Positions 41,589 through 60,358 of a DNA stretch of 64,000 nucleotides are shown here, piece after piece. Below the pieces are notes generated by a model. It saw only the letters and a program-made list of their open reading frames with translations. It was not told where the DNA came from and searched no databases. Source of the stretch: Octopus vulgaris. Lineage: Eukaryota. The stretch's first letter is position 1, and the number at the start of each line of letters is the position of its first letter. Made by a program: the position numbers and the translations under genes. The stretch lies in assembly GCA_951406725.2 (NCBI GenBank), contig OX597817.1, positions 8,928,001 through 8,992,000 of the forward strand, written 5' to 3'.

Positions 41589-41666
41589 GCGGCTGAAGAA
41601 GGCCATAGACACACATTATGCATTGTTATAAATCCGTCTAATAAAGGCCCGAAACATATGTACCGC
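41589..41666 (+). ncRNA. Type I hammerhead ribozyme with 51-nt stem II
   Basis: GCGG CTGAAGA AGGCC...GGCCC GAAAC ATAT GTA CCGC. Confidence 0.8.
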
Positions 41667-41967
41667 TGAATCATTGGCATCATGTTTTTATTTTGATTAA
41701 TATGTATGTATATATGTATGTATGTTGTATGTATACATGTATGTATGTATTATGTATGTATGTATGTATGTATGTATGTATGTATGTATGTATGTATGTA
41801 TGTATGTATGTATGTGTGTATGTATGTATGTATACATGTATGTATGTATGTATACATGTATGTATGTATTATGTATGTATGTATGTATGTATGTATGTAT
41901 GTATGTATGTATGTATGTATGTATGTATGTATGTATGTATGTATGTATGTATGTATGTATGTATGTA

Positions 41968-42410
41968 CGTGTTCTCATGCATATCGTTGCATATCTAGTC
42001 ATGCTCATATATATGTAAATGATAAACTTCTAGAAAGTTTTACAGATTTTTACAGTTCCAGTGATGGATTGGATCAGTTGTCTTAGAATTAGCTTTCTCC
42101 TTTCTGGCTTTGAGAAACCTAATTTCTCAGGATCGGTACTTAGACAGTGTGTTACATATCCCAGGGTCCCAATTATTACAGGTATAAACCTGAACTTGAA
42201 ATCTGGCTAGAGTGTCTGTAGATTTCTCAATAGTTCAGCATAAATATTCTCTTTTTCACTGATCTTCAGCTTTGTGTAAACATCCGCTTGGCAACTAATT
42301 TCCACGATTGTACACAGTTACTTTTTCCCTCCCCAAATTATTATATCAGACCCGTTGTGCTTACATTTTATTGAGGTTTCACTAGAACATTCCACCAGTA
42401 CTCCTTTTTA
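41968..42410 (-). pseudogene. 3' end of an RLE-type (R4/Dong-like) LINE
   Basis: EYWWNV..KHNGSDIIIW..IVEISC..KISEKENIYAELLRNL..FIPVIIGTLG..ITGTVKICKTF. Confidence 0.85.
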
Positions 42411-42508
42411 TTATGAGTGGCTATGGCTTCCACCATACATATGTATGTCTGTACTTATATTTATGAATGCATATTTATATATATATATATATATATATAT
42501 ATATATAT

Positions 42509-43140
42509 AGCAATAATAATTCTCTAAATGAGATATAGACAGTAACTGCTCCATAACATAAGGGACTAAAGCCATCTGAATATGGCTAGGGACAGGGCAG
42601 GGTGGTGGGGGTGTTACTGTTGCATTTAGCTCCAGGTGAACATCAACGTCGCCAGATAGGCTTGACACCATCACGGCGTCCTCTATCCTGCAAAGGGAGA
42701 TAATTCCCCGATGAAGCGGAAACCACACACGGACCTAGGTTTCAAGGTGTTTGCCTAGTTGTTCGTCGAGGAAGCGGTTGCCTACCATACGTTGATAATA
42801 TCTCATTTAGAGAATTATTATTGCTGTCGAACAGATTTTCGAAATCAGCAAATGTATTTTGCTTGAAAATCTATATAAATATCCTGCAGAGTGAGTTGTT
42901 CGTCGAGGAAGCGGTTGCCTACCATACGTTGATAATAGGCAAACACCTTGAAACCTAGGTCCGTGTGTGGTTTCCGCTTCATCGGGGAATTATCTCCCTT
43001 TGCAGGATAGAGGACGCCGTGATGGTGTCAAGCCTATCTGGCGACGTTGATGTTTGCCTGGGGCTAAATGCAACAGTAACACCCCCACCACCCTGCCCTG
43101 TCCCTAGCCATATTCAGATGGCTTTAGTCCCTTATGTTAT
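42509..43140. repeat. Foldback element: 205-bp inverted, 44-bp direct and 28-bp inverted repeats
   Basis: 42553-42757 vs 42936-43140 (inverted, 3 mismatches); 42757-42800 = 42894-42937; 42509-42536 vs 42798-42825 (inverted). Confidence 0.92.
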
Positions 43141-43576
43141 ATATATATATATATATATATATATATGTATATGCATGTGCACACAATATATGTGTGTATA
43201 TGTATGTATATATATCATGTCTGAGTGTGTTCATGTATGCATATATATTCTTTTAATCTTGTATTTATTTCAGTCATTTGAATGTGGTCATGCTGGATCA
43301 CAATCTTGAAGGGTTTTTAGTCGAACAACTTAGCCGGACCGCTAAGTTACGAGTACGTAGACACATGTATGTGTATATATGTATATATATATATGTGTAT
43401 ATTTATTTTATTTTATTTTATTTTATCAGTTTCAGCTCACGAGCTGTATGTAAAAATATATGTATGTATACCCCTCCCAATATATATATATATATATATA
43501 TATATATGTATGTATATTCCTGGCTTTCACCCAGCCGGCCGGTTTTTGATTCCCGGTATGGGAACGTGTTATTTAT

Positions 43577-56637: not shown

Positions 56638-56904
56638 ACTGAAAGACTTCGCCAGGTGGTGCTATTAAGTTAGACATGGCCTGGGCCAATACTGGCCAAA
56701 ACCTTTCTAAGTTATTCTAAGTTATATATATATATATATATGTGTATGTATGTATATATATATATATATATATATATATATATATATATATATATATATA
56801 TATATATATATATATATATACATATATATGTATACATATATATATATATATATACATATATATGTATATATATATATATATATATATATATGTATATATA
56901 TATA

Positions 56905-57641
56905 TATAATTAATTAATAAGGGTGAGAGAATTAGATACTAATTTAATAGCATATCTATTCAACACCAAGTGGCATAGTGCTCGAGAAACCTGGATTATT
57001 ATAATATTTTATAATATATTATAATATTTTTACAAAATAAATATAAGAGAGTGGTCACTATATGGCTCACTCTAGCACTAGTTAATCCAAAAGGTTTCAA
57101 CCACAAAAATACATGTTTCCCATGAAAGTCAGTACGATTGTTAGCTCACACGGACAGGGCAAATAAAAATAACAAAAATACAGATTATTTTGGGACAATT
57201 GTTTCGCTATTAATGAATTAAATGTAATTTTACTTACAAAAAAATCCACTTGTAGCTCGTCAGCCAAAACTATCTGGATGAAATCCACTCAATCACACGC
57301 CAGATTTTACCATAACGATAAATACACGTGTGGTTCAATTGATTACATCCGACGTTATAATTCAAATGCCCCAACTAACAGCGCGCCAAACTCACGGAAA
57401 ACAAATACTGCATTTAGAAATAAATGTAGCATAATTATAATTAATTAATAAGGGTGAGAGAATTAGATACTAATTTAATAGCATATCTATTCAACACCAA
57501 GTGGCATAGTGCTCCGAGAAACCTGGATTATTATAATATTTTATAATATATTATAATATTTTTACAAAATAAATATTAAGAGAGTGGTCATATATGGCTC
57601 ATCTAGCATTAATCCAAAAGGTTTCAACCACAAAAATACAT
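56905..57641 (-). mobile_element. Retrozyme-like partial tandem repeat (531-bp period) with an HHR
   Basis: Direct repeats 56905-57114 and 57436-57641, HHR between them, (TA)n on both sides. Confidence 0.8.
57188..57269 (-). ncRNA. Type I hammerhead ribozyme with 51-nt stem II
   Basis: TTTTGG CTGACGA GCTA...TAGC GAAAC AATT GTC CCAAAA. Confidence 0.88.
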
Positions 57642-57952
57642 ATATATATATCATATATATATATATATATATATATATATATATATATATATATTATATG
57701 TATATGTAAAACGATACAAACTGGGACAAGAACGCAAAACATTTAGAAGACTATACAAAAAACACGGACGGGACATTCGAAGCCTTCAATCTTCAGTCAA
57801 GAACCGGATCATCCTCACAATTTCGGCTAATTAATCTTGAGATCGCTCCGATCCGGCCAGCCCCAAGGAAAAACTAAGCTACGATGTTTTTATATATATG
57901 TATGTATATATATGTATGTATGTATATAACTTTATATGTATATGTATGTATG

Positions 57953-58245
57953 TATGGCTGTGTGGTAAGAAGTTTTCTTCCCAACCACATGGTTCAGGGT
58001 TCACTCCCACTGCGTGGCAATTGCGGAAAATTTCTTCTACCATAGTCTCGGGCCGACCAAAGGCTTGTAAGTGGTGCTGGTAGACGGAAACTGAAAGGAG
58101 CTTGTCGTGTGTGTGTGTGTGTTTGTCACCCCCCCCAAAAAAAAACCGGTGTTAGTGTGTTTACGCACCCCTTGGTTTGGACATTCGGCAAAAGAGACCG
58201 ATAGAATAAGTACAAGACTTAAAAAGGAAGTAAGTCCTGTGGGTC
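57953..58245 (+). mobile_element. SINE family 1, partial and diverged
   Basis: TGGCTGTGTGGTAAG..TAGACGGAAACTGAAA..GAGACCGATAGAATAAGTAC. Confidence 0.8.
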
Positions 58246-60279
58246 GTACCTAAAGATATTCCTAAGTTCACATTGCGCTCATCAGATAAAATTTTCAATT
58301 TCTGTCAAATAGCAATTTGTGAGTTTGAGAAAGAACGAGCGGTTTATATAAGATGTGGGTAATTCTTGAACCGACGATGATTTCTCTCTGTTTTGCAACG
58401 TCTGAGGAATCCGGAAGTGTCAAGAAAAATTAGTTAAATTATCCTCGGGGAGGAATATGTGAAGGAACAAAAAAATGTGGTCTAAAATTTATTTGGTATT
58501 TAGTTAAATTAAATGAAAGAATGTGTGTCACTGTGCGTGTGTATGTGTGTCTCTCCCCATATATATATATATATATATATATATATATATAGAGAGAGAG
58601 AGAGAGAGAGAGAGAGAGAGAGACAGACAGACAGACAGACAGACAGACAGACAGACAGAGAAAGGGAGATGTATGTATGTATATATAAATACATATATAT
58701 ATATATATATATATGTATGTATATATAAATACATATATATATATATATATGTATTTATATATACATGTATATATGTATATATATGTATATATATGTATTT
58801 ATATATACATGTATATATGTATATATATGTATATATATGTATTTATATATACATGTATATATGTATATATGTATATATATGTATATATAAATACATATAT
58901 ATATATATATATATATATAAATATATATATATATATATATATATATATATATATATATATATATATATATATATACATATACATAGTTGCCTTTCATTGG
59001 GACCTAAGCCCTTTGAAGGAGTCGTCGGGGCGCCATCATGATATATATTGTGTCTTAGGCATTTTTAGATCTAGCATATCACTTAGCTCCCTAGATCTTA
59101 CTAAAATCTATTTCTTGCAGAAGATAGAAAGACGGACAGAGAGAAAGAGTGAGAGGAATAGAAGAGTAGAACTGGTGCTTTATGTATAGTCTACGAAAGT
59201 ATGGAAGCAGCTTGTTTTCGGCGGAATTTGAACTCAGATCGGAAAGAACGGGCCTAATTATCACATATATATATATATGTGTGTATGTATGTATATATAT
59301 ATATTTGATAGAAGTTGAAAATTTTATTTGATGAACGCAATGTGAATTTGGGTACATCTTTGGGTACGAGCCACAGGACTTACTTTCTTTTTAAGTCTGC
59401 TATACGAAGTTATAGCAGCCCTGCTAACACACACAGGTACACACACACTCTCTCTCTCACACACACACACACGCACACACACACACATACACACACATAC
59501 ACAAACACACACACAAACACACACACACACACATACACACACACACACACACACACACACACACACGATAGATAGATAGATAGATAGATAGATAGATAGA
59601 TAGATAGATAGATAGATAGATAGATAGATAGATAGATAGATAGACAGACAGACAGACAGCATTTGTCTGAAGCACTATGGAACACGATTCTTACTTCTGA
59701 TTGTATGTCCCTCCACTTCAACTTTTGCCAAGGGAAAATTCAAAAGTTCTTGAAGTTTAAGGATCTGAGGTTTTAAAAAACTAACATCTTTGTTAACTTT
59801 CAAGCCACCTATTTTCATTCTTCCATCAATGCCATTAAAAGGTTCATTTCTTCATTCGCTTTTATTCTTAGTTTTCATGTCCTTTCTACGCTTACCAACA
59901 TATATTGTACTTGGACTGTAATTATTCTAAGTTGTTGGAACAGCATTAAGGAACGAAGTTCCACAGAAGCCAGTCCCAGCCGTGACTTTGTTTGCACGAA
60001 AGTCTGGGTGGATGACCAGGTGAGCTTTGAGCTATGAAAGTGCTGCAGAAGAGTGGTTCATCAATCTTTGAATTTCTATTTGGGAATTGATTGCTATCTG
60101 TGGAGAAACAACAGAGCAAGATGCAGAAAGAAATCATTATGTAAATATTACAATATGGGTATAATTACAAACAATAAATTAGAGAGATACAAATGATTAC
60201 CATATAATTTATTGATATTATAACATAATATAGTATGAATATAATACAATATAATATAACATAAATAATTCTTTAAAAA

Positions 60280-60358
60280 AACAAAAATTTGTTTCGACTT
60301 ATATACATTTTTGGATATATAAACAATTCAATTCTTTTATATATAAGCCTCATCAGGG
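60280..60358 (-). ncRNA. Hammerhead motif with 54-nt stem II, lacking the 3' strand of stem I
   Basis: CC CTGATGA GGCTTATATA...TATATAAGTC GAAAC AAATTTTT GTT followed by unrelated T-rich sequence. Confidence 0.65.

Follow-up and report, generated by a model that had tools for sequence, protein, structure and literature searches.

Hammerhead motifs in the window

The stretch of DNA analysed here (the window) comprises 64,000 nucleotides of the Octopus vulgaris genome (assembly GCA_951406725.2, contig OX597817.1, forward-strand positions 8,928,001 to 8,992,000) and carries five hammerhead ribozyme motifs, HHR1 to HHR5, in which a long stem II arm separates the two halves of the core. The motifs are genuine and abundant, and represent an apparently undescribed, long-armed variant of the dimer-type hammerhead of Penelope-like elements (PLEs), tied to an expanded Hydra clade where a link could be assessed. 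The spacers between CUGANGA and GAAA measure 51 nt in HHR1 (41600-41650), 57 nt in HHR2 (44446-44502), 54 nt in HHR3 (47952-48005), 51 nt in HHR4 (57206-57256), and 54 nt in HHR5 (60296-60349). HHR1 and HHR2 lie on the plus strand, and the other three on the minus strand. These coordinates and lengths, given in a first-pass annotation of the same DNA, were exact on recheck, and the closing stems and the four stem III palindromes read as quoted there. Its statement that every motif has GAAA was wrong for HHR3, which reads GGAA (A13G).

HHR1 (41589..41666, +) consists of a 4-bp stem I, CUGAAGA, an extra A, the 51-nt domain II, GAAA, and the palindrome ACAUAUGU, and is predicted to cut after A41662. 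Across the HHR1 family, the base of stem II has this extra A or, alternatively, an A.C pair. The motif forms the 3' end of a 5'-truncated element (about 41035-41701), and its surroundings in the window are (TATT)n/(TATG)n instead of (TA)n. HHR2 (44433..44520, +) is intact, with a 6-bp stem I, CUGACGA, the 57-nt domain II, GAAA, the palindrome ACGAUCGU, and a predicted cut after A44514. It is carried by the 3' end of a 5'-truncated element of the Hydra clade of PLEs (44102..44680, +) that is flanked by (TA)n tracts. Copies of HHR2 elsewhere are 97-99% identical and often have an inverted 5'-truncated partner. In many copies, diverged 170-nt repeats (44110-44360 in the window) directly adjoin the HHR2 terminal region on its 5' side.

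On the minus strand, HHR3 (47935..48017) has a 5-bp stem I, CUGAUGA, the 54-nt domain II (48005-47952), GGAA in place of GAAA, and the palindrome ACAUAUGU, with the cut site after C47940, and sits between (TA)n tracts. It belongs to the most abundant superfamily, whose core is intact; the window copy is probably inactive because of the A13G change. HHR4 (57187..57270, -) is intact and has a 7-bp stem I, CUGACGA, the 51-nt domain II (57256-57206), GAAA, the palindrome ACAAUUGU, and a predicted cut after C57194. It lies in a partial tandem of a retrozyme-like repeat (56905..57640, -), with one 535-nt unit and part of another between (TA)n tracts. HHR5 (60284..60358, -) is decayed: the core and the 54-nt domain II (60349-60296) are kept, stem I has lost its 3' strand and stem III its palindrome, and the one homologue compared is also decayed. 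A type I core (CUGANGA ... GAAA, A15.1-U16.1, and an N17 other than G) is present in HHR1, HHR2, and HHR4 and in the families of HHR1 to HHR4, and absent from the window copies of HHR3 and HHR5. The combination of core, 35-100 nt spacer, GAAAC, and perfect palindrome occurs three times in the window and never in any of 200 block shuffles.

Host elements

HHR2 is the terminal-repeat hammerhead of a Hydra-clade PLE. Its family lies about 1.3 kb 3' of the GIY-YIG domain, and the elements include intact frames of 1,090-1,091 aa. Two loci carry frames of this type, L133 (1091 aa, 1900-5172) and L135 (984 aa, 1796-4747). Both have DKT, a C-terminal GIY-YIG, a CxCx5C linker, no CCHH, and a long Asn-rich insert between reverse transcriptase (RT) and endonuclease; RWR is found in L133 and RWK in L135. 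The frames resemble by eye the Hydra consensi in PMC8557442 File S7. Because these motifs match the clade signature described in PMC8557442, the frames can be assigned to Hydra, and the same assignment is suggested by sequence wherever a protein could be linked to the hammerhead. Pfam gave no match for the Hydra-type frames, including the 1091-aa frame.

Same-strand motifs occur on both sides of a Hydra-type frame in L135, L072, and L073, and L134 shows the upstream copy. Hammerheads recur every 4,650 nt in L135 and every 5,600 nt or so in L072/L073, which have an 85-nt arm; in L135 the first likely AUG lies about 210 nt past the upstream cut site. Placement in the pseudo-long terminal repeats (pLTRs) rests on this flanking for the HHR2 superfamily and the 85-nt family, and on 3' position only for the HHR3 and HHR1 families. 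Three loci (L017, L061, L069) have relatives of HHR3 on the 3' side of Hydra endonuclease fragments. For the HHR1 family, such a fragment is found 2 kb upstream at one locus (L222), via an overlapping chain of matches. Altogether, 14 endonuclease-linked motifs, many of them chosen for a long arm, have arms of 43-85 nt and come from lineages whose endonucleases are 27-43% identical. The link of the 43-nt family to the L093 endonuclease is doubtful, since an endonuclease 87% identical to this one goes with a 53-nt motif.

The start of a Neptune-like fragment often coincides with, or lies close to, the point where a Hydra copy ends 3' (L064 4346-4383; L075; L063), and false links between hammerhead and protein are therefore easily made. 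HHR5 was considered as the 3' end of the Neptune-like fragment upstream of it and was rejected as such: matches to relatives of the fragment stop at about 60525, and those of the HHR5 region are separate. The upstream region itself (60525-61661, -) is composite, combining an RT fragment of Hydra type with a Neptune-like linker and endonuclease that are broken. A link to Naiad elements, which are marked by an N-terminal endonuclease, a CxC motif, and DKA, was not supported for the linked families. None of the linked loci has an N-terminal endonuclease, the endonucleases there being C-terminal, and six 12-mers of core plus palindrome are absent from the supplement of PMC8557442, line breaks aside.

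The HHR4 family forms many arrays with a tandem period of 535 nt, some of at least 10 units, and no PLE protein match was found in those of L198-L207. By its sequence, the unit qualifies as the non-coding tandem with one type I hammerhead that defines a non-LTR (long terminal repeat) retrozyme. In further retrozyme-like tandems (L080; L039-L040), the units measure 594 nt with an arm of 70 nt, or 353 nt with an arm of 14 nt.

Insertion into (TA)n, as in the Hydra clade, is seen at the ends of the copies. These ends lie about 37, 41, 42, 52-56, and 64-66 nt past the cut in five families, 207-223 nt past it in the 85-nt family, and about 290 nt past it in HHR4. Because copies end past the cut site, the template must run beyond it, and reverse transcription is not started on the arm. 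This disfavours RT priming on the arm, one of the roles that the first-pass annotation had suggested.

A young Neptune-like Penelope family (L233, G000:C1:27841000-27850900; L063 4418-6400) has a 775-aa frame and a 4,271-nt tandem period, and 150 of 150 scored matches are identical. Its sense strand lacks CUGANGA, and no ribozyme is found among the Rfam matches listed; the family may have no hammerhead or may use a variant core.

Stems, covariation and arm fold

Pairing was analysed in a sample of 183 distinct motifs in 58 clusters, taken from 1.06 Mb of loci and the window; the sample was stratified by length bins and partly hand-picked. The 35 clusters with a median spacer of at least 35 nt were treated as long families, 23 of them being single sequences. 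Watson-Crick pairing was counted at positions that the search pattern did not force and compared with 2000 shuffles, which ignore relatedness and are thus supportive rather than formal tests. Stem I pairs 1-4 are Watson-Crick in 32, 29, 26, and 20 of the 35 families (shuffled pairs 1-2: 9.3 and 9.6), stem II pairs 2-5 in 30, 27, 25, and 20 (shuffled pairs 2-3: 10.4 and 8.9), and the inner stem III pairs in 32 and 28 (shuffled 12.3 and 9.3). No shuffle out of 2000 matched the observed pairing at stem I pairs 1-2, stem II pairs 2-3, or the inner stem III pairs, and pairing across the long families was not significant at stem I pair 5 and stem II pair 6. A perfect 8-nt palindrome is present in 27 of the 35 families, with 11 different sequences, and N17 is A or C in 34. 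The motifs have the three helices of a type I hammerhead, with an open-ended stem I and support from covariation.

Compensatory changes were also found within two superfamilies, which agrees with the earlier view of the arm as a structured domain. The 24 sequences of the HHR3 superfamily share a basal helix of 11 bp, in which pairing reaches 93.6% and 6 of the 11 pairs show two-sided changes; an apical consensus helix is not predicted. In that of HHR2 (23 sequences), the basal helix covaries and so does a 5-bp apical hairpin, which has two-sided changes at 3 of 5 pairs. When the first members of the families were compared with dinucleotide shuffles, arm folding gave z < -2 in 17 of 33 and z < -1 in 26 of 33. 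Arm sequence common to the superfamilies was not found, the identity of 51-53% being background. Between subfamilies, the arm is more identical than the upstream 3' untranslated region (UTR) (90 v 62, 70 v 57, and 78 v 66%), and conservation equal to that of the arm is seen in the 36 nt that follow the cut. A spliceosomal intron was rejected as an explanation of the arm, since a common GT..AG layout was not seen by eye.

Abundance, arm length and detection

The genome scanned (2.8 Gb) is rich in microsatellites. A strict pattern, CTGANGAG-N-CGAAACNNNNGTH, was searched and binned by spacer length, with the reversed pattern as control; it fixed the core and permitted A, C, or U at N17. The counts are lower bounds, as long motifs of the HHR1 type and G-U-closed families fall outside the pattern. 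Spacers of 7-37 nt gave 1,075 matches (control 57), 38-68 nt 13,474 (38), 69-99 nt 3,149 (33), and 100-130 nt 236 (67). Long-spacer motifs (38-130 nt) thus number 16,859 genome-wide, against 138 in the reversed controls. With a further 265 short motifs that have an extra base after the core (control 54), long forms exceed short ones by about 13:1. Five pattern matches in viral contigs were set aside as chance, four having neither stem I nor stem II and one lacking stem I.

The first-pass annotation had proposed a fixed length of 51-57 nt. Such spacers account for 8,501 of the 17,934 strict matches (47%), with 53% falling outside, and families also occur at 42-45, 58-64, 70-97, 100, and 110-130 nt. 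The medians of the long families range from 35 to 97 nt, 8 of 35 lying at 51-57 nt and 17 of 35 at 49-63 nt. Lengths also shift within clusters (53-59, 55-80, and 60-70 nt), and a 15-nt and a 77-nt family share stem I, the stem II base, and both flanks (shuffle p 0.000-0.008). The arm is therefore long and family-specific, with a broad mode rather than a fixed length. The annotation itself had named a broad, flat distribution as evidence against its proposal: the distribution is broad overall, but it has a wide mode near 50-63 nt, and the peak in copy number is driven by a few expanded superfamilies.

Its expectation that standard models miss these motifs was confirmed. Rfam gave no match in the window at gathering score. 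At E values up to 10, the region 41000-61000 had 126 matches, none of them a hammerhead, and none of the five motifs was matched. As a control, a motif with a 15-nt arm (L031) matched RF00163 at E = 0.0016, below gathering score, among the best 150 of 185 matches. The minimal hammerhead descriptor in PMC4209133 (Fig S7: stem II 3-7 bp, loop 2 3-10 nt, gaaannuh) does not describe the motifs either, because their spacers are 51-57 nt and stem III is 8 nt.

Predicted folding and mechanism

In a single copy, the stem III hairpin is predicted at +2.4 kcal/mol, and the palindrome duplex at -6.4 to -10.0 kcal/mol. The palindromic helix III is thus predicted to be too weak in a monomer, as in the dimer-type hammerheads of Penelope, and cofolding of two copies gives a double hammerhead for HHR1 and HHR2. 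Together with the links to Hydra frames and the frequency of palindromes, these energies bear out the earlier description of the motifs as type I hammerheads of the Penelope kind, whose palindromic stem III would suit cleavage as dimers.

We consider it reasonably probable that the motifs are type I hammerheads in the terminal repeats of PLEs, that their stem II is an irregular hairpin of 35-130 nt whose length is a property of the family, that they cleave as dimers, as predicted, and that the arm is a self-folding scaffold. The core, the three covarying stems, the position in terminal repeats or tandems, and the copy ends are direct observations on which this builds. A read-through transcript (pLTR-open reading frame-pLTR or tandem 535-nt units) would carry two same-strand motifs. 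A lone motif would be unable to close its stem III (2 bp and a 4-nt loop), and two motifs could pair their 8-nt palindromes and swap stem I strands to form a double hammerhead. Cuts after GUA or GUC would then release unit-length RNA, possibly circularised. Reverse transcription would begin 37-66 nt or more 3' of the cut, and the copy would be inserted into (TA)n; a start 3' of the cut implies that the template is uncut or re-ligated RNA. The long arm would fold locally and early, and would keep the G10.1-C11.1 pair in place although the RNA is AU-rich and its stem I has only about 4 bp. Selection would keep the arm folded, and its length would drift by insertions and deletions.

Several results weigh against this explanation. 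The HHR4 dimer prediction keeps the core mispaired, and the lowest-energy predicted folds of HHR3 and HHR5 are not hammerheads. HHR2 (44439-44514) and HHR4 (57194-57263) monomers pair the core GACGA with their own stem III strand, a predicted self-inhibited fold. Seven of the 33 arms fold no better than z = -1, and the families of a single sequence may include chance matches. According to PMC4209133 and PMC11167929, Penelope hammerheads cleave poorly without protein. Three further findings fit a positive function of the arm beyond scaffolding: the clustering of family medians at 49-63 nt, the conservation of the arm above the upstream 3' UTR, and the retention of long arms in four Hydra lineages with endonucleases as divergent as noted above.

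Alternative explanations

It is possible, and we hold this tentatively, that the arm is a docking site for the RT-endonuclease of the element or for a host factor. In the cleaved unit RNA, the arm would then stand 12 nt short of the 3' end, and it would set the template preference of each family or turn cleavage on. An Anolis Penelope hammerhead cleaves only with its protein, according to PMC11167929, and the retention of long arms across deep Hydra lineages, the covarying apical hairpin, and the conservation of the arm above the upstream UTR point the same way. A family-specific arm sequence would suit family-specific recognition, but the superfamilies share no arm sequence, loop motif, or length, and the equal conservation of the 36 nt past the cut indicates that the constraint may cover the whole terminal region. 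Moreover, short-arm families are mobile in the same genome, and every Hydra hammerhead listed in PMC8557442 File S2 is short-armed.

More speculatively, the long arm could be a module of Hydra elements that combines a family-specific protein handle with a double-stranded target of A-to-I editing, by which the ribozyme is switched off; we regard this as doubtful. In HHR2, A>G differences at 44501, 44506, and 44514, which include A15.1 and N17, were seen in contigs of two runs from different studies, whose RNA origin is only a guess. Among 54 genomic records, partly overlapping, G occurs at 44501 in one and at 44506 and 44514 in none. The differences could reflect A-to-I editing or unsampled copies. 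Contigs of four runs, likewise guessed to be RNA, cover the HHR2 region without showing ends or strand, and were weighed neither for nor against. If the arm is such a module, the long-armed form would account for a large, so far overlooked part of animal ribozymes, and it would be present in some of the Penelope families described as hammerhead-less or as having only a 'half core'.

In hammerheads, both natural and engineered, the loop of stem II is free to vary. The arm might be a tolerated insertion with no role, selection removing only versions that misfold the core. Lengths from about 13 to 130 nt, apical loops that in some cases show microsatellite-like growth, and the flanks shared by a 15-nt and a 77-nt family would agree with this; the excess of long over short forms and the extension of compensatory changes to the apical hairpin make it unlikely. 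Loss of catalysis, with the region kept as an internal promoter, an RNA pairing (kissing) signal, or the like, seems quite improbable. Hammerhead mutants had no effect on insertion in vitro (PMC11167929), the young Neptune-like family does without CUGANGA on its sense strand, and copies run past the cut site. Yet the catalytic bases and a cleavable N17 are kept while the stems turn over, although the pattern itself fixed the core. Least credible is the distinct hammerhead class with a fixed 51-57 nt domain proposed in the first-pass annotation. Nearly half of the copies and all five chosen motifs are in that range, and the broad mode lies close to it; over half of the copies and 27 of the 35 sampled long families are outside, lengths shift by up to 25 nt within families, and the peak stems from a few superfamilies.

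The published descriptor does not accommodate the long arm of about 17,000 motifs in a single animal genome, and none of the five tested was recovered by Rfam. Consequently, counts of invertebrate ribozymes may be too low, and statements that Penelope families lack hammerheads may be wrong. Young intact elements, together with dozens of natural arm variants (13-130 nt) on one core, offer a ready test series that bears on the function of Penelope hammerheads, their need of a partner or protein, and the stem II size that a dimer tolerates.

Other features of the window

The window also contains a decayed hammerhead with a 77-nt domain II (8690..8790, core at 8785, -), which stands 5' of a broken Hydra-type RT and endonuclease frame (6287..8114, -). 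In a short hammerhead-like motif (3953..3998, core at 3959, +), domain II measures 13 nt and the cut-site base is U, and a decayed relative of a hammerhead family with a 14-nt spacer lies at 22913..22957 (core at 22951, -). Since spacers of 13, 14, and 77 nt also occur in the window, the narrow range of 51-57 nt partly reflects the choice of the five motifs. At 970-1050 (-), CUGAUGA is followed by a hairpin and by GAAA 54 nt on; it reads GAAAG, stem III is not clear, and this is possibly a decayed long-armed motif. The segments 29529-30269, 51098-56637, and 62238-63095 hold what we take to be a Mariner-type transposase fragment, two CR1/L2-type LINE (long interspersed nuclear element) fragments, and an RTE-type LINE end.

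Comparison with known systems

The comparisons below refer to the accessible portions of the papers cited. No paper on the long-armed form was found; Lunse 2017 and Arkhipova 2017, which the search did not cover, may hold long-loop examples, and according to PMC8557442 Arkhipova 2017 used descriptors with longer loops. Within those portions, a class with a stem II of 40-100 nt was not found in PMC7229834, PMC6765202, PMC3088659, PMC6962438, or PMC13725137. In the last of these, 'long helix II' means 6 bp; it also reports that self-cleavage can drive cap-independent translation, which is a possible use of the upstream cut here.

The core is identical to that of Rfam Hammerhead_1 (RF00163), and the long-armed form does not establish a new catalytic class. 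The motifs resemble the PLE hammerheads of Cervera and De la Pena 2014 (PMC4209133) in their type I core in pLTRs, short stem I, G10.1-C11.1 pair, palindromic helix III, occasional extra base after A9 (here in HHR1), and occurrence as thousands of solo copies in many sequence families per genome. The hammerheads described there have a palindromic helix III, cleave weakly as dimers, and were searched with a descriptor loop 2 of at most 10 nt. Their helix II has 3-8 bp, closed by a 3-10 nt loop, whereas the whole domain here spans 35-130 nt and contains internal loops as well as an apical hairpin; the palindrome of stem III is uniformly 8 nt long here, and stem III has 4 nt in the minimal form. 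The short stem II that the first-pass annotation ascribed to minimal Penelope hammerheads holds for the loops, but helices II of 7-8 bp have been reported (PMC4209133). Dimer cleavage of Penelope hammerheads and an RT start downstream of the cut are already published (PMC4209133, PMC6765202, PMC11167929), and a protein-assisted Penelope hammerhead, also with an RT start downstream of the cut, is described in PMC11167929.

As in the Hydra clade (Craig et al. 2021, PMC8557442), the linked elements have DKT, RWR/RWK, a C-terminal GIY-YIG, and CxCx5C without CCHH, target (TA)n, form partial tandems with an inverted 5'-truncated copy, and carry a hammerhead near the 3' end. The Hydra hammerheads reported there have short arms (about 11-25 nt), in contrast to 51-85 nt here, and the elements are generally <3 kb, in contrast to units of 4.6-5.6 kb with a long Asn-rich insert. 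File S2 of that paper lists spike moss hammerheads, PLE-X1_sMoe and PLE-X1_sTam, marked as deviating from the canonical structure. They share a long loop 2 (35 and 29 nt, with about 54 nt between the core halves in sMoe), but lack a palindromic 8-nt stem III and are two table entries that were not analysed as a class. The same paper describes eight Naiad 'half cores', with halves 35-50 nt apart. The order is permuted in the 3' ends of Naiad_Obim and Naiad_Ovul (File S5), where GAAAC precedes CUGAUGA by about 20 nt; this might represent a type II-like hammerhead.

Finally, HHR4 is like the non-LTR retrozymes (PMC7229834; bioRxiv 10.64898/2026.07.22.740005) in forming non-coding tandems with one type I hammerhead per unit. 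Derivation of retrozymes from pLTRs has been described (bioRxiv 10.64898/2026.07.22.740005), and the HHR4 units probably owe their mobility to a PLE. In canonical retrozyme hammerheads, helix II is 4 bp long and loop 1 contacts loop 2, whereas the 535-nt unit of HHR4 carries a long arm.

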